Shown: one piece after another, positions 22,478-39,399 of the stretch | Layout of the letters: every line of letters starts with the position of its first letter | How positions within the stretch are numbered: the stretch's first letter is position 1 | From: an uncultured Chitinophagaceae bacterium | GTDB lineage: Bacteria; Bacteroidota; Bacteroidia; Chitinophagales; Chitinophagaceae | Direction: 5' to 3' | NCBI GenBank assembly: GCA_963845495.1 | Contig: CAWJTH010000202.1 | Location: forward strand, 3,239-67,238 | DNA: 64,000 bases | Translations under genes and position numbers: made by a program | Notes under the pieces: generated by a model | What the model was told of the DNA's origin: nothing | Seen by the model: only the letters and a program-made list of their open reading frames with translations | Databases searched by the model: none

Positions 22478-22820
22478 GCAATTTTCATTTGGTTGTAACA
22501 ATTGGAAAGCCAAAACCGCACAATTTTCCAAGCTTAAAAATTTTTTTAAAAAGAAATTATTTTTGCCAATAGAGCAAAAGCATGGGCCTTTGTGAGCCAT
22601 AATTAATGGTATTGTTAAGTGAATGATGCCGTGGAAAACCATTGTTCAACGGAGCTCCTCGATGCCTCAGGATAAACTTTGCCACAAATGCTCCTACATT
22701 GCTTCCAAAGCTGGTCACCAAAAAACCTTTTGTACCCATACTTTTGCAACAATAAACAATTAGAAATTTTTATCTAAGAATGGTGTAATTATTCACCATT
22801 CACTATTTACCATTCACGAT

Positions 22821-25800
22821 ATGGACTACGATTTCAGGAAAATTGAGCAGGCTTGGCAAGAAAAATGGAAGGCAACCCAAGCTTACAAAACCACCAACGA
22901 CACCACAAAACCAAAGTGTTATGTGCTGGATATGTTTCCTTACCCAAGTGGTGCGGGACTGCATGTGGGTCATCCGTTGGGCTACATTTCAAGCGATATT
23001 TATAGCCGATATAAAAGGCTGAAAGGTTTTAACGTGCTGCACCCCATGGGTTATGATGCTTTTGGTTTGCCGGCCGAACAATATGCCATTGAAAAAGGTG
23101 TGCATCCTGCCGTTTCAACCGAAGAAAATATTGCCAATTTCCGCAAGCAGTTAGACAATATTGGCTTCAGCTACGATTGGGACCGTGAAGTTCGTACCAG
23201 CGAAGCCAGCTATTATAAATGGACGCAATGGATTTTTCTGCAATTGTTCCATAGCTTTTTTAATCGTATCGATAACCGGGCCGAACATTTGTCGGTATTG
23301 ATCGAATCGTTTGAAAATGAAGGAAGTTTGGTACATGAGATTCCAAATACGAAATACGAAATACGAGAAACGGGCAAAAACTCTTTTACCGCCGAAGAAT
23401 GGAATGGCTTCGACGAAAAAACCAAACACGATATTTTAATGGAATACCGCCTGGCGTTTTGTGGCTATGGCGAAGTGAATTGGTGCGAAGCACTGGGCAC
23501 CGTTTTGGCCAACGACGAAGTGGTGAACGGCGTAAGCGAACGTGGCGGTTATCCGGTAGAAAAAAAACGCCTCCGCCAATGGTATTTGCGCATTACCGAA
23601 TATGCTGATCGCTTGCTGAAAGGTTTAGAAACCGTTGATTTTAGCGAGGCAATGAAAGAAATGCAAAGCAATTGGATCGGAAAAAGTTATGGGGCGGAAA
23701 TTGAGTTCAACCTCACCCCCGGCCCCTCTCCACAAGTGGCGAGGGGTGCCTCTGTGCAAGTGTCATCACAGTCGGAAAATCCGGGTTCAAAAAATTCAGT
23801 CGTTCCTAAGTATTCAATCGTATCTATTAAGCAGTTCGAGCTAGCAAGAGAAAATAGAAAAGGTCATACAGAGGCAGAAGCAATTTTATGGAAAGAATTA
23901 CGTGGAAATAACTTGGGTGAAAAATTTAGGCGCCAACACCCAATTGATGCCTATATCGTCGATTTTGTTTCTCTTCAAAACAAATTGATAATTGAAATTG
24001 ATGGCGGTTATCATGAAACGGAAGACCAAAAAATTTATGACGATGCCCGTAGCAGTGTGTTAAATCAAATTGGTTTTAAAGTAATCCGATTTACTAACGA
24101 AGAGGTGATCAATCACACAAAAGAAACAATAAAAAGAATAAAAGAAGCACTCGCGGAAGAACAGCAAGAAGCCACAAATATTCACGAACCCGCAATTGGC
24201 AAACAGTCAGCCAGCTTCACAGAGGCACCCCTCGCCACGAGTGGAGAGGGGACGGGGGTGAGGTCTTTAGTCGTTTACACAACCCGCCCCGACACCATTT
24301 TTGGTGTTGATTTTATGGTTATTGCGCCGGAACTGGATTGGATTCCAAGCATTGTTTCGGAAGCACAAAAAGAAGAAGTTGAAAATTATATTGCTTACGT
24401 AAAAAGCCGTAGCGAACGGGAGCGCCAAGCGGAGAAAAAGATAAGTGGTTGTTTTACAGGTGCTTATGCCATCAATCCGTTTAACGGAAAAGAAATTCCG
24501 ATTTGGATAAGCGAATATGTTTTAGCTGGTTATGGCACAGGTGCTATTATGGCCGTGCCTTGCGGCGATGACCGTGATTTTAAGTTTGCGCAGCATTTCA
24601 ATATTCCCATCACTAATATTTTGGGCGATGCGTTTAATGGAAATGAAGCTAATCCAACTAAAGATGCGAAGCTAACTAATAGTGGTTTTTTAGACGGCGT
24701 GGTAATGCGGGATGCCATCCAAATTGTAAATGCCAAGCTGGAAGAAATGGGCATTGGCAAGGCCAAAGTAAATTACCGGATGCGGGATGCGGCGTTTAGC
24801 AGGCAGCGCTATTGGGGCGAGCCATTCCCGATTGTTTGGAAAAACGGTATTGCTTATGCATTGGATGAAAGCGAATTGCCACTGGAACTGCCCAAAGTAG
24901 ATGGTTATGGCCCGGGACCAGATGGCGAAGGTCCGCTAGCAAATATTTTAGAATGGACGGCACAAAACTTGGAAACGAACACCATGCCTGGTTATGCCGG
25001 TTCATCGTGGTACTTTTTAAGGTATATGGATCCGCACAACGACCAAGTTTTTTGCGACCGCAAAGCCAGCGATTATTGGAACCAAGTAGATATTTACATC
25101 GGCGGCACCGAACATGCCGTTGGCCATTTATTGTATAGTCGCTTGTGGACCAAGGTTTTATACGATCTTGGGTTTATTGGTTTTGATGAACCGTTCAAGA
25201 AATTGGTGAACCAAGGGATGATTCAGGGAAGTTCGAGGTTTGTGTATAGAATTGTTGGAACCAATCAGTTTGTTTCCGCCGGCAAAAAAAATGAATACAA
25301 CGTAACCCCTTTGCACGTAGACGTGAATCTTGTTGATGGCTATGAACTTGATATTGAAGCATTTAAAAAATGGAAACCAGAATTTGCCGATGCTGAGTTT
25401 GTATTTGAAGACGGTACTCTTTCTTTTTCTTGCACTATTGGTACCGCAAAAGATATGAAATATATCTGCGGCTCTGAGGTTGAAAAAATGAGTAAAAGGT
25501 ATTACAACACTGTTAATCCTAACGATATATGTGAAAAATACGGTGCTGATACTTTCCGCATGTACGAAATGTTCTTGGGGCCGGTGGAAGCGTCTAAACC
25601 TTGGGAAACCAAAGGCATTGAAGGCGTTCATCGTTTTCTTAAAAAATTGTGGCGCTTATTTTTTACGGATACTACTTTTTCAAATGGAAAAGCAGTGCAA
25701 GGCAAACCAGTTTGGAACGACCAACCCGCTACACCGCAAGAATTGAAAGTGTTGCACAAAACTATCCGCAAAATTGATGATGACACGGAAAAATTCAGTT

Positions 25801-26195
25801 ACAATACAGCCGTAAGCGCTTTTATGGTTTGCGTAAACGAATTAACGGATTTGAAATGCAATAAAAAATCGGTGTTGGAACAATTGCTGGTGTTATTGTC
25901 GCCTTATGCGCCGCATGTAACGGAAGAATTATGGCATCAGTTGGGCAACACAACCAGTATTTTAGATGCAGCTTATCCGGTGTTCGAACAAAAATATGTG
26001 GTGGAGTCGTCCAAAGAATATCCAGTTAGCATCAATGGTAAATTAAGAACCACTATGGATTTTGCCCTTGATGCAATGGAGGCGGATGTAAAAAGCGAAG
26101 TATTGACCAACGAAATTGTGCAAAAATGGTTGGAAGGCAAAGAGCCGAAGAAAATTGTTTTTGTAAAAGGAAAAATGATAAATGTGGTGGTGTAA
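22821..26195 (+). CDS. leuS: leucine--tRNA ligase carrying a 185-codon in-frame insertion
   Basis: 1124 aa. Motifs: HVGHPLGY (HIGH), NWIGKS, TTRPDTIFG (editing-site Thr-rich motif), KMSKRYYN (KMSKS). Residues about 297-482 have no counterpart in LeuRS and form the cassette listed separately. Confidence 0.95.
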   Translation: MDYDFRKIEQAWQEKWKATQAYKTTNDTTKPKCYVLDMFPYPSGAGLHVGHPLGYISSDIYSRYKRLKGFNVLHPMGYDAFGLPAEQYAIEKGVHPAVSTEENIANFRKQLDNIGFSYDWDREVRTSEASYYKWTQWIFLQLFHSFFNRIDNRAEHLSVLIESFENEGSLVHEIPNTKYEIRETGKNSFTAEEWNGFDEKTKHDILMEYRLAFCGYGEVNWCEALGTVLANDEVVNGVSERGGYPVEKKRLRQWYLRITEYADRLLKGLETVDFSEAMKEMQSNWIGKSYGAEIEFNLTPGPSPQVARGASVQVSSQSENPGSKNSVVPKYSIVSIKQFELARENRKGHTEAEAILWKELRGNNLGEKFRRQHPIDAYIVDFVSLQNKLIIEIDGGYHETEDQKIYDDARSSVLNQIGFKVIRFTNEEVINHTKETIKRIKEALAEEQQEATNIHEPAIGKQSASFTEAPLATSGEGTGVRSLVVYTTRPDTIFGVDFMVIAPELDWIPSIVSEAQKEEVENYIAYVKSRSERERQAEKKISGCFTGAYAINPFNGKEIPIWISEYVLAGYGTGAIMAVPCGDDRDFKFAQHFNIPITNILGDAFNGNEANPTKDAKLTNSGFLDGVVMRDAIQIVNAKLEEMGIGKAKVNYRMRDAAFSRQRYWGEPFPIVWKNGIAYALDESELPLELPKVDGYGPGPDGEGPLANILEWTAQNLETNTMPGYAGSSWYFLRYMDPHNDQVFCDRKASDYWNQVDIYIGGTEHAVGHLLYSRLWTKVLYDLGFIGFDEPFKKLVNQGMIQGSSRFVYRIVGTNQFVSAGKKNEYNVTPLHVDVNLVDGYELDIEAFKKWKPEFADAEFVFEDGTLSFSCTIGTAKDMKYICGSEVEKMSKRYYNTVNPNDICEKYGADTFRMYEMFLGPVEASKPWETKGIEGVHRFLKKLWRLFFTDTTFSNGKAVQGKPVWNDQPATPQELKVLHKTIRKIDDDTEKFSYNTAVSAFMVCVNELTDLKCNKKSVLEQLLVLLSPYAPHVTEELWHQLGNTTSILDAAYPVFEQKYVVESSKEYPVSINGKLRTTMDFALDAMEADVKSEVLTNEIVQKWLEGKEPKKIVFVKGKMINVVV
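23710..24264 (+). mobile_element. 555-bp in-frame cassette: DUF559 (Vsr-like) endonuclease domain flanked by hairpin-forming terminal inverted repeats
   Basis: Left arm acctcacccccggcccctctccacaagtggcgaggggtgcctctg (23710-23754). Right arm cagaggcacccctcgccacgagtggagaggggacgggggtgaggt (24220-24264) is its reverse complement with 3 differences. The core encodes ARENRKGHTEAEAILWKELRGNNLGEKFRRQHPIDAYIVDFVSLQNKLIIEIDGGYHETEDQKIYDDARSSVLNQIGFKVIRFTNEEV, a DUF559 signature. There is no stop and no ATG codon inside. Confidence 0.8.
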
Positions 26196-26371
26196 AAAAT
26201 AAGAACGTGGACAATTCCATAGAAATAAATATTTACAAAGAAGCAAGTTTTTCTAAAAAGGAAGAGCCATTTGCAATACTGTGTGAAGGAAACTTAAGAA
26301 AAGAAATGGTTGTCACAAGAAGATGATATTTGGGACGAATGGGTTATTGAGCAAATGAAAACGAAAAATCT

Positions 26372-27238
26372 ATGACTGAACAAGATTTCAACCAACATCT
26401 GCAACACCTTGTAAATGAGGCGCTAAGGGAGGATATCGGTGATGGTGATCATAGCACATTGAGCTGCATTCCGTCAGGCAAAATGGGGAAAGCCGTATTG
26501 AAAATTAAACAAGACGGCTTGCTGGCAGGCGTGCAAGCAGCGTACCAAATATTCCATTTGGTTGAGCCATCCGCAAAAATGACCATCTACAAAAATGATG
26601 GCGAAGCCATGGTTTTTGGTGAAGTAGCTTTTGATGTAGAAGCATCCATTCAAACAATTTTATCATGCGAAAGATTGGTTTTAAACACTATGCAACGCAT
26701 GAGTGGCATTGCAACGCTTACCAAAACGTATGTTGATAAACTAGCTGGCTATCATACTAAAATTTTGGATACCCGTAAAACCACCCCCAATTTTAGGCTG
26801 CTGGAAAAAGCAGCGGTTAAAATTGGCGGCGCAGTCAATCACCGTTTTGCATTGTATGATATGATTATGTTGAAAGATAATCACATTGACTATTGTGGCG
26901 GCATTGAGCCAGCCATTGAAAAAGCATGGCAATACGTGCAGGAGAAAAAGCCAGGACTAAAAATTGAGGTGGAAACCAGAAATTTGGCAGATGTAAGAAA
27001 GGTGATAAATGTTGGCAAAGGCAAAGTATTTCGTATTATGTTGGATAATTTTACGCCAGCACAATTAAAAGAAGCATTACAACTAGTTGATAATCAATTT
27101 GAAACAGAAGCAAGTGGGGGAATTAACCTCTATACGATCCAAAGCTTTGCTGAAACAGGCGTAGATTATGTAAGCGTGGGTGCGCTTATCCATCAAGCAA
27201 AAAGCTTAGATTTAAGTTTGAAGGCGGTGATTTTGTGA
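26372..27238 (+). CDS. nadC: nicotinate-nucleotide diphosphorylase (carboxylating)
   Basis: 288 aa. The blocks DTRKTTPNFRLLEKAAVKIGG..NHRF.LYD and MLDNF are QPRTase motifs. Confidence 0.92.
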   Translation: MTEQDFNQHLQHLVNEALREDIGDGDHSTLSCIPSGKMGKAVLKIKQDGLLAGVQAAYQIFHLVEPSAKMTIYKNDGEAMVFGEVAFDVEASIQTILSCERLVLNTMQRMSGIATLTKTYVDKLAGYHTKILDTRKTTPNFRLLEKAAVKIGGAVNHRFALYDMIMLKDNHIDYCGGIEPAIEKAWQYVQEKKPGLKIEVETRNLADVRKVINVGKGKVFRIMLDNFTPAQLKEALQLVDNQFETEASGGINLYTIQSFAETGVDYVSVGALIHQAKSLDLSLKAVIL

Positions 27239-36140: not shown

Positions 36141-39100
36141 TTATCCTTCCAATTCCATCTTCAAAAACCTTGCGGTATGACTTACTTTATTGTTAATCAT
36201 TTCTTCCGGCGTTCCTTCAAATAAAATTTCGCCGCCACCATCGCCGCCTTCCAAGCCAAGGTCAATAATATGATCAGCAACTTTTATCACATCCATATTG
36301 TGTTCAATAACCAAAACAGAATTGCCGCGATCAACCAACTTATTTACCACTTCTAATAAATGTTGGATGTCCTGAAAATGTAATCCTGTTGTTGGTTCGT
36401 CTAAAATATAAAACGTTTTGCCGGTGTCTTTTTTACCTAATTCTGTACTCAATTTCACACGCTGTGCTTCGCCACCACTAAGTGTCACGGAACTTTGGCC
36501 AAGGGTAATGTAGCCCAAACCAACATCTTGCAGCACCTTTATTTTTCTGTACATCCAAGGTATGGCCTGAAAAAATTCCACGGCATCGTCCACCGTCATG
36601 TCCAACACATCGCTGATGCTTTTGCCTTTGTAGCGTATTTCCAGCGTTTCGCGGTTGTAGCGTTTGCCTTGGCATTTTTCGCACGGCACGTAAACATCAG
36701 GCAAAAAATTCATTTCAATTACCCGCATGCCGCCGCCTTCGCATACATCGCAACGGCCGCCTTTTACGTTAAAAGAAAAACGGCCAGGCAAATAACCCCT
36801 AATTTTTGCTTCAGGAACGGAAGCGAATAATTGCCTTATCTCTGTAAAAAATCCACAATAAGTAGCTGGATTACTGCGTGGTGTGCGGCCAATCGGGCTT
36901 TGGTCAATCTCAATTACTTTATCAATAAAATCCAAGCCTTTGATGCGCTTGTAAGGCATTGCCACCATTTTGCTAGCCAAAAAACTATGGCGACTTAAAA
37001 TGGGATAAAGTGTTTCGTTTATTAATGTTGACTTGCCGCTGCCGCTTACGCCAGTTACCACAATCAATTGCCCTAAAGGAAATTTTACCGAAACATTTTT
37101 AAGCGTATTTCCCGTGGCACCTTGCAATTCTAAAAATTTGCCATTGCCTTTGCGGCGTTCTTTGGGTATTTCAATTTTCTTTTCGCCATTTAAATATTGG
37201 GCGGTTTCACTATGCGTAGCCAACACTTCGGCGGGTGTTCCCATGGCTACAATATTGCCGCCATGGCGGCCGGCTTTGGGGCCGATATCCACCAAAAAAT
37301 CAGACGCCATCATGATGTCTTTGTCGTGTTCCACCACTAAAACACTATTGCCGATGTCGCGTAAATGGCGCAACGCATCAATCAACCGCTGGTTGTCGCG
37401 TTGGTGCAAACCAATGGAAGGTTCATCTAAAATATAGGTGATGCCCTGCAGTTGTGAACCAATTTGTGTAGCCAAGCGAATCCGCTGGCTTTCGCCACCA
37501 CTCAGTGTTTTAGAAGAACGGTCGATGGTGAGATAATTCAACCCAACATCCAACAAAAATTGTAGGCGTTCCCTAATTTCCTTCAATACATCTTTCGAAA
37601 TCAGTAATTGTTTTTTGCTGATACGATCCTCGATGCCATCGAACCAACGCATTAGTTTATCAAGGTTTAGGTGGCTGAGTTCCGCAATATTTTTTCCATC
37701 TACCATAAAATAAAGGCTTTCTTTTTTAAGCCTTGCGCCTTGGCACGATGGGCAAGTTTGCAAAGACATAAAACCCTCAGCCCAATCGCGGATGGCATCG
37801 CTGTTGCTGCCATTGAACCAGCGTTTTACCATATTTATCACACCCTCAAACTCGTCAGTCGTGAATCGTGAGTCGTGAGTTGGGCCGCTGCTATCTGGTG
37901 AATTGCTTACCACTGACGCCTCACCACTTACCAAATCCCCCATCATTTCCAAATCATTTTCATCCGGCGTTTCTTTACCGTAAAAAATAATATTTTTTTG
38001 CGCTTCCGTTAATTCGCTAATTGGTTTTGAAAGGTTGAATTTATTTTTTCTAGCCAATGCTTCTACTTGCTTAAAAATCCAAGCTTCGCGTTTTTCGCCC
38101 AGCGGCGCAATGCCACCGTCGTTTATGCTAACAGATGGATCGGGGATAACCGACGCCATATCAATTTGGTAAACTGTTCCTAAGCCTTTACAAACTGGGC
38201 AAGCACCATAAGGGCTGTTAAATGAAAACGAATTGGGCGAAGGCTCGTCGTAACTGATGCCGGTGTCTTCGCACATTAAGGCTTTGGAATATTGAACCAG
38301 CAAAGACGACGGACGATTGACGACGGACGACTTGCCACCCGTGGTCTTTCGTCCGTCGTCAATCGTCGGTTCTACCTGGATCTGCATGATATCCTTTCCC
38401 AACTTTAACGCTTGTTGCACGCTCTGGCTTAAGCGCAGCTTCATATCTGGCGTTGCGGGCAGGCGGTCAACCACCAATTCAATGTCGTGAATTTTATATC
38501 GGTCGACCTGCATTTTAGGCACCAAGTCTTTAATTTCACCATCAATCCGCACTTTTAAATAACCTTTTTTGCGTAGGTCTTCAAATAGTTCGCGGTAGTG
38601 GCCTTTTCTGCCCCTAATTATAGGTGCTAAAATGGATAATTTGCCATTTGCAAAGCGGCTGAAAATATTTTCGACGATTTCTTCTTCGCTCCATTTTACC
38701 ATTTTTTTACCTGTATTGTAACTTATGGCATCGCTGCCACGAGCGTACAACAAACGCATAAAATCGTAAATTTCGGTGATGGTGCCAACGGTGCTACGCG
38801 GATTTTTATTGGTGGTTTTTTGTTCGATGGAAATAACAGGCGAAAGGCCGGTTATTTTATCTACATCGGGCCGTTCCATATCGCCCATAAATTGGCGGGC
38901 ATAAGCGCTGAAGCTTTCCATGTAGCGGCGCTGGCCTTCGTTGTAAATGGTATCGAAAGCCAAAGATGATTTACCGCTTCCGCTAACACCTGTAAAAACC
39001 ACCAGTTTATTTTTGGGTATGGAAATGTCGATGTTTTTGAGGTTGTGTTCGCGGGCACCAAAAACTTCGATCACCTCACCCTCCGGCTCCCTCTCCACAA

Positions 39101-39182
39101 GTGGCGAGGGAGTGCCCCTATTTGAGCTTTGATTAATTTTTTTGGGCTTTACCGTTGTTTTTTCAATTGTTTCCTTTGCCAT
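36141..39182 (-). CDS. uvrA: excinuclease ABC subunit A with three repeat-derived in-frame extensions or insertions
   Basis: 1013 aa. Motifs: GAREHNLKNI, two ABC modules (GVSGSGKSS twice, LSGGE twice), zinc modules CPVCKGLG, CPSCQG, CDVCEGGG, CEKCQG. The extra segments coincide with repeat DNA, listed separately. Confidence 0.95.
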   Translation of the reverse strand: MAKETIEKTTVKPKKINQSSNRGTPSPLVEREPEGEVIEVFGAREHNLKNIDISIPKNKLVVFTGVSGSGKSSLAFDTIYNEGQRRYMESFSAYARQFMGDMERPDVDKITGLSPVISIEQKTTNKNPRSTVGTITEIYDFMRLLYARGSDAISYNTGKKMVKWSEEEIVENIFSRFANGKLSILAPIIRGRKGHYRELFEDLRKKGYLKVRIDGEIKDLVPKMQVDRYKIHDIELVVDRLPATPDMKLRLSQSVQQALKLGKDIMQIQVEPTIDDGRKTTGGKSSVVNRPSSLLVQYSKALMCEDTGISYDEPSPNSFSFNSPYGACPVCKGLGTVYQIDMASVIPDPSVSINDGGIAPLGEKREAWIFKQVEALARKNKFNLSKPISELTEAQKNIIFYGKETPDENDLEMMGDLVSGEASVVSNSPDSSGPTHDSRFTTDEFEGVINMVKRWFNGSNSDAIRDWAEGFMSLQTCPSCQGARLKKESLYFMVDGKNIAELSHLNLDKLMRWFDGIEDRISKKQLLISKDVLKEIRERLQFLLDVGLNYLTIDRSSKTLSGGESQRIRLATQIGSQLQGITYILDEPSIGLHQRDNQRLIDALRHLRDIGNSVLVVEHDKDIMMASDFLVDIGPKAGRHGGNIVAMGTPAEVLATHSETAQYLNGEKKIEIPKERRKGNGKFLELQGATGNTLKNVSVKFPLGQLIVVTGVSGSGKSTLINETLYPILSRHSFLASKMVAMPYKRIKGLDFIDKVIEIDQSPIGRTPRSNPATYCGFFTEIRQLFASVPEAKIRGYLPGRFSFNVKGGRCDVCEGGGMRVIEMNFLPDVYVPCEKCQGKRYNRETLEIRYKGKSISDVLDMTVDDAVEFFQAIPWMYRKIKVLQDVGLGYITLGQSSVTLSGGEAQRVKLSTELGKKDTGKTFYILDEPTTGLHFQDIQHLLEVVNKLVDRGNSVLVIEHNMDVIKVADHIIDLGLEGGDGGGEILFEGTPEEMINNKVSHTARFLKMELEG
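37856..37932. repeat. word-repeat pair inside the uvrA coding sequence
   Basis: G/T arm cagtcgtgaatcgtgagtcgtgagttgg (37856-37883) and C/A arm gcttaccactgacgcctcaccacttacc (37905-37932) use the same tcacg/tcacc words as the intergenic hairpins. Complementarity is imperfect. They encode ...SGEASVVSNSPDSSGPTHDSRFTTDE just before the conserved FEGVI block. Confidence 0.65.
38312..38367. repeat. perfect 19-bp stem hairpin inside the uvrA coding sequence
   Basis: gacgattgacgacggacga (38312-38330) and tcgtccgtcgtcaatcgtc (38349-38367) are exact reverse complements with an 18-nt loop. The hairpin is translated in frame as IDDGRKTTGGKSSVVNRP. Confidence 0.85.
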
Positions 39183-39399
39183 ATTTGTTTCTTGCGGAAT
39201 ATCGAAAATACAAACAAGTAGTGGAAGGAAAGGTTTTATGCGAAAAAAATTAGTTTTTCTTGATTAAGATGGCATCATGTTATTTAAAATTCATTTATAG
39301 AGCGATTTAAAAAAGCAAACGGAAACCTTAAATGAAATAAATGAGCCTTTATAGGGGCACTCCCTCGCCACTTGTGGAGAGGGAGCCGGAGGGTGAGGT
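39073..39399. mobile_element. 327-bp nuclease-less member of the leuS-cassette repeat family, spanning the uvrA start
   Basis: acctcaccctccggctccctctccacaagtggcgagggagtgcccctat (39073-39121) and ataggggcactccctcgccacttgtggagagggagccggagggtgaggt (39351-39399) are perfect 49-bp reverse complements, about 85 percent similar by eye to the leuS cassette arms. The 229-bp AT-rich core contains the uvrA ATG at 39182. Confidence 0.8.

Follow-up and report, generated by a model that had tools for sequence, protein, structure and literature searches.

In a 64,000-nucleotide stretch of DNA from an uncultured Chitinophagaceae bacterium (contig CAWJTH010000202.1; the whole stretch is hereafter the window), the leucyl-tRNA synthetase gene leuS contains an insert that encodes a DUF559 nuclease domain between two hairpin-bearing inverted repeats. 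We rate this insert as a selfish nuclease element with an unusual persistence strategy. It is probably a nuclease cassette that is, or once was, mobile and that persists because it is translated through, its repeat arms encoding disordered linkers. A preliminary description of the sequence had proposed a selfish nuclease-bearing element that is translated through in the manner of the Rickettsia palindromic elements (RPEs), and the comparative data presented here support and favor that proposal.

The cassette and its host gene

The cassette and its parts are located in the window as follows.

22821 to 26195, forward strand: leuS, the host gene for leucyl-tRNA synthetase (LeuRS), a single open reading frame (ORF) of 1124 amino acids with the insert and 939 without it
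23710 to 24264, forward strand: the whole cassette, 555 bp or 185 codons, stop-free and in the leuS frame
23710 to 23756, forward strand: left arm, with outer motif ACCTCACCCCC, spacer GG, hairpin CCCCTCTCCAC-AA-GTGGCGAGGGG (23723-23746) and inner sequence TGCCTCTGTG
23835 to 24152, forward strand: DUF559/Vsr-like nuclease core, insert residues 42-147, defined by Pfam, structure model and alignment
24218 to 24264, forward strand: right arm, the reverse complement of the left arm with 3 differences, with hairpin CCCCTCGCCAC-GA-GTGGAGAGGGG (24228-24251) and outer motif GGGGGTGAGGT

The claim that leuS carries an in-frame, stop-free insert of 555 bp (185 codons) was borne out. The extra codons lie between '...GAEIEFN' and 'LVVYTTRPDT...', with an in-frame reading of 23712-24266. 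In the protein, the first junction joins N to LTPG and the second joins GVRS to LVV. Removing the 185 codons in silico left an intact frame, as had been predicted, and the PF13603 editing-domain model is contiguous in the resulting 939-residue protein (profile positions 2-184). The insert had been placed in the linker entering the editing domain, which proved incorrect: the insertion point is about 14 residues inside PF13603, in the loop between strand 'AEIEF' and strand 'VYTTRPDT'. The statement that the insert has not a single ATG is true of the reading frame, which has no Met codon, but not of the insert overall, where six ATG trinucleotides occur out of frame.

The inverted repeats and their three differences were also confirmed, and their extent is now 47 nt (23710-23756 and 24218-24264, 94% complementary). 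The 30-nt core of the arm had no matches in 100 shuffled versions of the window. The left arm is translated as (N)LTPGPSPQVARGASV and the right arm as TEAPLATSGEGTGVR. Read from the sequence, three of three frames are stop-free in the left arm and two of three in the right arm. Each arm contains a hairpin, in agreement with the earlier suggestion that the arms self-fold, but the hairpins have an internal T/C mismatch and modest stability as DNA (-8 to -10 kcal/mol, z of about -1 to -1.9). In the RNA fold, the two arms pair preferentially with each other in a 47-bp long-range helix (z = -7.2), which we treated as a by-product of the inverted repeats.

The core of the insert had been read as a DUF559/Vsr-like module, and profile searches uphold this assignment. 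The Pfam model PF04480 matches the insert with E = 7.6e-33 and 113 bits (cut-off 20.6) over profile positions 4-108 of 109. The nearest solved structure by sequence is PDB 3hrl (E = 1e-22), and the sequence match to 3r3p (I-Bth0305I, 'mobile intron protein') is weak. An AlphaFold model of the insert, built on 37 sequences, gave 10-residue block means of pLDDT of 86-98 over residues 41-150, which comprise the core. The arm-encoded ends are poorly ordered in this model (pLDDT of about 46-65). Foldseek matched the model to 3hrl (TM 0.90), to the catalytic domain of I-Bth0305I (3r3p; TM 0.80, probability 1.0) and then to Vsr (1vsr). A published PD-(D/E)xK classification groups DUF559 with Vsr and the I-Bth0305I homing endonuclease (PMC3424549), and an EDxHD/Vsr-like homing endonuclease family has been described (PMC2677866, PMC3239194).

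We compared residues across 85 copies of the nuclease, 68 of which are embedded in or fused to a host protein. The window copy retains all residues that are invariant in the family alignment. These include D84, E95, D97 and H101, which we consider candidate active-site residues. The invariance of E95, D97, G98, Y100 and H101 carries no weight because these positions were fixed by the search pattern used to collect the copies (see below). Outside that pattern, E56, W60, R74, Q75, I82, D84, F85, R126 and N129 are invariant in 85 of 85 copies. The domain is presumed from its sequence to have nuclease activity.

DUF559 cassettes in other genes and in related synthetases

Metagenome contigs were scanned with the peptide pattern [IV]E[VI]DG[GE]YH, which is blind to genomic context. 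The scan returned 498 confirmed relatives, and the best 80 loci were kept for context analysis. At 55 of these 80 loci the nuclease lies in one uninterrupted frame with host sequence on both sides. Another 8 are N-terminal fusions (IspF and others), and at 17 the nuclease occupies an intergenic spacer whose two flanking genes are complete and co-directional (argG-argC, ilvD-ilvB and others). None of the 80 disrupts a gene out of frame. Contigs L001-L003 and L037 were unusable for the frame test; BacA, FtsX and leuS are also split in them by apparent assembly frameshifts. Because the same in-frame architecture occurs in 55 independent metagenomic contigs, an assembly chimera appears implausible as the source of the insert.

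The hosts are diverse. Protein relatives of the insert are in some cases fused to LeuRS, RecG, RNase H, IspF and other proteins. Embedded copies occur in LeuRS (at two sites), in valyl- and isoleucyl-tRNA synthetases (ValRS and IleRS), in the helicases RecG and RecQ and in chorismate synthase (AroC). Further embedded hosts are methylmalonyl-CoA mutase (MCM), an HsdR-like protein, a lipoate/biotin ligase, UDP-galactopyranose mutase (Glf) and a polysaccharide-synthesis enzyme. The host Pfam matches for AroC, MCM and Glf are each broken by the insert into two stretches. In each of two LeuRS genes, one cassette precedes TTRPDT and another precedes ETNTMPGYAGSSWY (L042, 4148-4432 and 5420-5707; L043, 2421-2705 and 3588-3869). 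ValRS cassettes (L076, L093 and L100) lie in the structurally equivalent loop, directly before ATTRPET, and an IleRS cassette (L115) lies between DVWFDSG and FPADFIAEGVDQTRGWF. Class Ia synthetases look like favored hosts.

The in-frame-only pattern is expected if the cassette is translated through and survivors are found only at permissive in-frame sites. It is not expected if the insert is removed as RNA. Removal at the RNA or protein level had been raised as an alternative and is disfavored by these results. The insert could in principle be excised by the arm-arm RNA helix followed by ligation, or by an unrecognized form of protein splicing, and the predicted 47-bp helix in the mRNA is the observation that speaks for this. 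RNA removal would not require a conserved frame or a lack of stop codons, yet all 55 intragenic copies are in frame on both sides. An Rfam scan of 22500-26500 at E<=1 found no family, intron or ribozyme match. In the cassette Pfam found only DUF559, with no Hint/intein domain and no known transposase family. The residues at the protein junctions (N to L and RS to L) lack the Cys/Ser/Thr and His-Asn of inteins, and junction residues vary from copy to copy. We therefore regard removal after transcription or translation as very improbable. Two named candidates were rejected on the same evidence: an intein, which would have Cys/Ser/Thr at both the first residue and the +1 position, a terminal His-Asn and a Hint fold, and a group I or group II intron, for which there was no covariance-model match at the threshold above.

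An exact look-up of the window LeuRS sequence gave no record. We examined LeuRS orthologs by using LeuRS without the insert as the query and inspecting the best 120 relatives. These are Chitinophagaceae proteins of 67-79% identity, and nearly all align gaplessly across the junction. PF04480 was found in only 2 of the best 120, and the closest orthologs (73-79% identity) have no insert. The site is empty in close relatives (PF04480 is absent from 118 of the best 120), which gives the element a sporadic presence like that of homing genes. Residence as a classical homing endonuclease gene was rejected; the cassette has no intron, no intein and no start or stop codon of its own. Examples of empty loops are 'AEIDFAIKGQDQKLRVYTTRPDT' (P0121) and 'AEITFNLKGLSNTLTVYTTRPDT' (P0213). 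The same LeuRS loop contains DUF559 cassettes in P0203 and P0219, and a LeuRS from a Ferruginibacter metagenome-assembled genome (MAG) has only an in-frame arm remnant, 'DFDLTPSPSPGGEGSRALTLKVYTTRPDT', at this site. The DNA of the remnant and cassette-bearing LeuRS genes shows the same arm design, with junctions 3-51 nt from the TTRPDT codons, and this spread is inconsistent with one precise homing site. Thus the insert is not an old lineage-specific domain, as related LeuRS proteins mostly lack it and its carriers have inverted repeats. The LeuRS loop is a general insertion hotspot.

Other sequences were seen in LeuRS proteins of this set. P0213 has a different insertion of about 125 residues at positions ~455-580 ('RINEHGCENLF...GGIDFTFYNDELNKNIAVELTS...'), before 'QLHVDVNIVDG'. 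It has no Pfam match and may be another nuclease-like insert. In the same loop as the cassette, L001 (4395-4570) and L002 (4080-4230) contain other insertions, a low-complexity repeat, 'SKLKVEDIESKLKVQS...', and 'VVSSQSSGVSKEPANSNTPLTSHVSPLT', and L098 contains tandem arm-derived repeats, 'SPLSFENNGVAFAD'.

We also considered whether DUF559 was recruited for repair or defense and deliberately tethered to housekeeping enzymes for the benefit of the host. Conservation of the nuclease residues fits such a role, and a PADLOC search gave weak matches to the defense models DpdF (1.5e-7) and a methyl-directed restriction endonuclease (8e-5). The PADLOC matches span only the shared nuclease core, and an NCBIfam search likewise gave only generic matches to it. 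The hosts are unrelated in function (aminoacyl-tRNA synthetases, helicases, IspF, AroC, a mutase and a ligase), the domain occurs patchily among close relatives, and the insert is bounded by the arms of a repeat element. A host-beneficial domain is in our judgment the least credible of the explanations considered.

The arms as a repeat family

Significant flanking inverted repeats of one common architecture were found at at least 36 of the 80 DUF559 loci. The common arm design consists of an outer motif, CCTCACCCC, i.e. (A)CC[TC]CACCCCC, a 3-4 nt spacer and a GC hairpin, CCCCTCYCC-loop-GGRGAGGGG. Among 76 arms there are 32 distinct 5' stem sequences, and 59 of the 76 have a perfect stem of at least 7 bp. 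The variety of stems combined with mostly perfect pairing indicates that the hairpins are maintained by covariation. The arms give rise to recurrent junction peptides, PSPxxERG and PLxxxGEGxGVR.

The preliminary description called for other copies of the arms in the genome, and a second copy is present in the same window:

39073 to 39399, no strand assigned: second, nuclease-free element of the arm family, 327 bp, with arms at 39073-39119 and 39352-39399 and an AT-rich non-coding core

This element fills the spacer that separates uvrA from the stop codon of a LytTR regulator gene. The longest possible ORF for uvrA (36141-39182, minus strand) has its ATG within the element and continues through one arm, so that '...RGTPSPLVEREPEGEV' is joined to 'IEVFGAREHNLKN'. 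A GTG straddling the outer end of the arm could serve as an alternative uvrA start, and the element would then be purely intergenic.

Nuclease-free arms are widespread. The exact hairpin of the window copy occurs, together with a conserved outer motif, in MAGs of Chitinophagaceae, Chloroflexota, Armatimonadia, Fibrobacteraceae, Spirochaetales and beta-proteobacteria, and a variant with a perfect stem occurs in 45 stretches of viral contigs. The 33 arm loci from genomes are mostly single arms or short palindromes without DUF559. One viral contig (L149, 10400-11850) has tandem units of about 335 nt, each holding an arm-only element of about 120 nt. Tandem arrays of arm units were observed in L149, L006 and L028, and hairpins in an Armatimonadia MAG are spaced 47 nt and 111 nt apart. 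In one Chitinophagaceae MAG, two single arms (L034, 1646-1800; L018, 2510-2620) are joined to homologous non-coding cores of about 70 nt. No partner arm was detected for either, and they may be one-ended or decayed elements.

Arm-only sequences also lie in frame inside long ORFs (L013, L030, L158 and L159), whose hosts are Chloroflexota, a beta-proteobacterium and phage-like contigs. From its translation, the beta-proteobacterial ORF appears to encode a DnaE2-like PHP-domain protein. These in-frame copies suggest that RPE-like translated insertions exist outside Bacteroidota. We conclude that the arms are an independent repeat family that has nuclease-free copies.

A related arrangement is found in Escherichia coli. 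At the K-12 locus fabI-ycjD-sapF (L166, 5040-5830), the DUF559 gene ycjD ends within arm-like sequence, and its protein ends in ...RRSPSP. A partial duplicate of the 3' end of ycjD follows, and then a full arm-like repeat. This repeat, about 150 nt downstream, reads CCCCTCGCCCC-TCT-GGGGAGAGGG-TTA-GGGTGAGGGG and has the same outer motif and GC hairpin design as the cassette arms. All 5426 complete E. coli genomes contain it (median 18 copies), whereas ycjD is present in 3378 of the 5426 (62%). Strains without ycjD have a different gene island upstream of fabI and do not offer a clean empty site. The repeat is probably the 'Box C' family (Bergler 1992, Bachellier 1999; first noted near envM/fabI). 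An identification with Delihas's RU-3 was wrong, as RU-3 is a BIME/REP sequence.

These distributions bear on the role of the nuclease. The arms could themselves be the mobile unit (Box C-like or MITE-like, that is, resembling miniature inverted-repeat transposable elements), moved by another host or transposon enzyme with DUF559 as a mere passenger. Arm-only copies are far commoner than DUF559 ones: tblastn with the DUF559 core or the insert found no DUF559 in the 78 arm-only loci (33 genome and 45 viral). The uvrA-adjacent copy in the window has a different core, and the E. coli repeat outnumbers ycjD in its distribution as described above. Arm loci without DUF559 and repeats without ycjD mean that the arms may not depend on DUF559. 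On the other side, DUF559 is the sole recurrent coding cargo seen between arms, and it is found there at no fewer than 36 of 80 loci, in divergent lineages and with co-varying arms. A known transposase family was not found in the cassette, and the pairing of arm with DUF559 is seen again in E. coli. On balance we find it improbable that DUF559 is a passenger. A known terminal inverted repeat (TIR) transposon of the DDE or HUH type was rejected as a candidate; the element has 47-nt TIRs and a second copy, but no target-site duplication and no transposase of a known family.

A broader proposal can be made tentatively, and we hold it to be somewhat less than an even chance. In this proposal the DUF559 nucleases would move or maintain the CCTCACCCC-plus-hairpin repeats, the E. 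coli ycjD repeat among them, and the two together would make up a pan-bacterial and undescribed class of mobile element. The Bacteroidota pair would then be the version that dispenses with both RNA and protein splicing and is permanently translated as a tethered domain by way of linkers that the repeats encode.

Persistence, movement and known parallels

Our explanation for the window copy is that it is one copy of a composite selfish element. A promoter-less endonuclease gene of the DUF559 family (Vsr/EDxHD superfamily), which lacks both a start and a stop codon, lies between terminal inverted repeats of about 47 nt. The element would be transcribed and translated only as part of LeuRS. Its GC-rich arms are stop-free in the frame used, and the peptides translated from them would be disordered linkers rich in Pro, Gly and Ser. 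The CP1 editing domain would carry the nuclease domain on a surface loop near its beginning, and LeuRS would stay functional. If the two hairpins recombined, 505 bp would be lost and the reading frame shifted. Since leuS is presumably essential, the element could be lost only through an exact in-frame deletion.

For the spread of the element, we infer that a DNA break or nick made by the DUF559 nuclease most likely starts movement. An allele that lacks the element could then acquire it by homing-like copying, and on rare occasions the element could jump to a new permissive site. Cis sites would be provided by the arms, of which nuclease-free MITE-like derivatives also exist.

A different history would leave the cassette immobile. 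It would have entered LeuRS and other hosts long ago and been inherited vertically, with many losses by exact deletion and an idle nuclease kept because deletion from an essential gene is hard. We examined relationships among copies in a neighbor-joining tree of 85 nuclease cores (about 95 residues). The tree contains host-specific clades for RecG, IspF, RecQ, AroC and a large group of LeuRS site-1 copies, with long branches. Near-identical copies were found nowhere among those compared: core identity between copies does not exceed about 73%, and for the window copy its highest value against any other is 65%. Detectable inverted repeats have mostly been lost from the RecG copies, and the two arms of the window copy are mismatched at 3 positions out of 47. 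These observations fit an immobile relic. The LeuRS site-1 copies as a whole are nevertheless polyphyletic; the window copy falls among site-1, site-2 and MCM copies, and the two cassettes within one LeuRS (L042, L043) are not mutual closest relatives. The nuclease residues outside the search pattern are invariant in all 85 copies despite the low identity, and a mere spacer would need only to fold. Junction positions differ between genomes over the range given above, and the closest LeuRS relatives lack the insert. We consider this history unlikely.

Several points weigh against a mobile, translated cassette, in addition to the nuclease-free arm loci and the E. coli genomes without ycjD. No target-site duplication or shared target motif was found at either window copy or at 36 other loci. 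The neighbor-joining tree is weakly resolved. No recent jump is documented by the window copy, given its identity of at most 65% to any other, and this copy may itself be an immobile relic. I-Bth0305I owes its specificity to an extra DNA-binding region (PMC3239194), which is missing from the DUF559 domain here. The argument that the 185 residues would be translated and retained in mature LeuRS is drawn from conservation of the frame, and a second, insert-free leuS may lie outside the 64-kb window. We still favor the translated selfish cassette as the probable explanation.

If correct, this explanation would mean that selfish nucleases can live in essential genes in a third way besides introns and inteins, by staying in the protein. 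It would give DUF559, a very large family without an assigned function, a concrete and testable role, and it may reveal which enzyme is responsible for a long-known but unexplained enterobacterial repeat. It would identify natural sites in LeuRS, ValRS, RecG, AroC and others that tolerate a folded core of about 120 residues with natural linkers (185 residues in all for the window copy), which could be of use in protein engineering. It would also account for an annotation nuisance, namely calls of 'DUF559' or 'very-short-patch-repair endonuclease' inside housekeeping genes, and for recurring peptides such as PSPxxERG and GEGxGVR.

We compared the cassette with known systems. The preliminary description had named no system of this kind, and the literature searched likewise contained no account of DUF559 cassettes flanked by hairpin inverted repeats or of DUF559 domains inserted in frame. 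A close precedent for translated insertion is provided by the RPEs (Ogata et al. 2000, cited in PMC3184786 and PMC2229807). RPEs and the cassette are both palindromic repeats that lie in frame inside protein genes and keep the frame, and the nuclease-free arm copies are alike in this respect. RPEs contain no gene and are not known to have a dedicated enzyme, whereas the palindrome here encloses a complete nuclease domain. The hosts also differ (Bacteroidota versus Rickettsia), and the sequences are probably unrelated.

The cassette resembles REP/REPIN-RAYT systems in that hairpin repeats flank a nuclease gene in inverted orientation and many repeat copies are enzyme-free. In those systems, however, RAYT is an HUH Y1 enzyme (IS200/IS605-like) and the REPs are extragenic, whereas the nuclease here is of the PD-(D/E)xK/Vsr type and lies inside coding sequence. 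The repeat adjacent to E. coli ycjD has the same arm design (CCCCTCGCCCC-TCT-GGGGAGAGGG, TTA, GGGTGAGG) and adjoins a DUF559 gene. Unlike the cassette, the E. coli repeat is intergenic, and no in-frame nuclease insertion is known in E. coli.

Inteins with homing endonucleases are likewise selfish nucleases that reside in frame in conserved housekeeping proteins, occur sporadically and are translated with the host. The insert differs from them in having no Hint or splicing domain and no splice-junction residues, in apparently being retained in the mature protein, and in being bounded by DNA inverted repeats, which inteins lack. The nuclease itself resembles the EDxHD/Vsr-like homing endonucleases (I-Bth0305I, PMC3239194; 'fractured genes', PMC2677866), which have the same fold and similar catalytic residues and are also selfish residents of conserved genes. 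Known EDxHD members occur in group I introns or split inteins, or break the host gene into two polypeptides, each member with a start codon and regulatory hairpin of its own and a DNA-binding region at the N terminus. In contrast, the nuclease of the cassette is a bare core of about 105 amino acids, fused in frame to its host via linkers encoded by the repeats.

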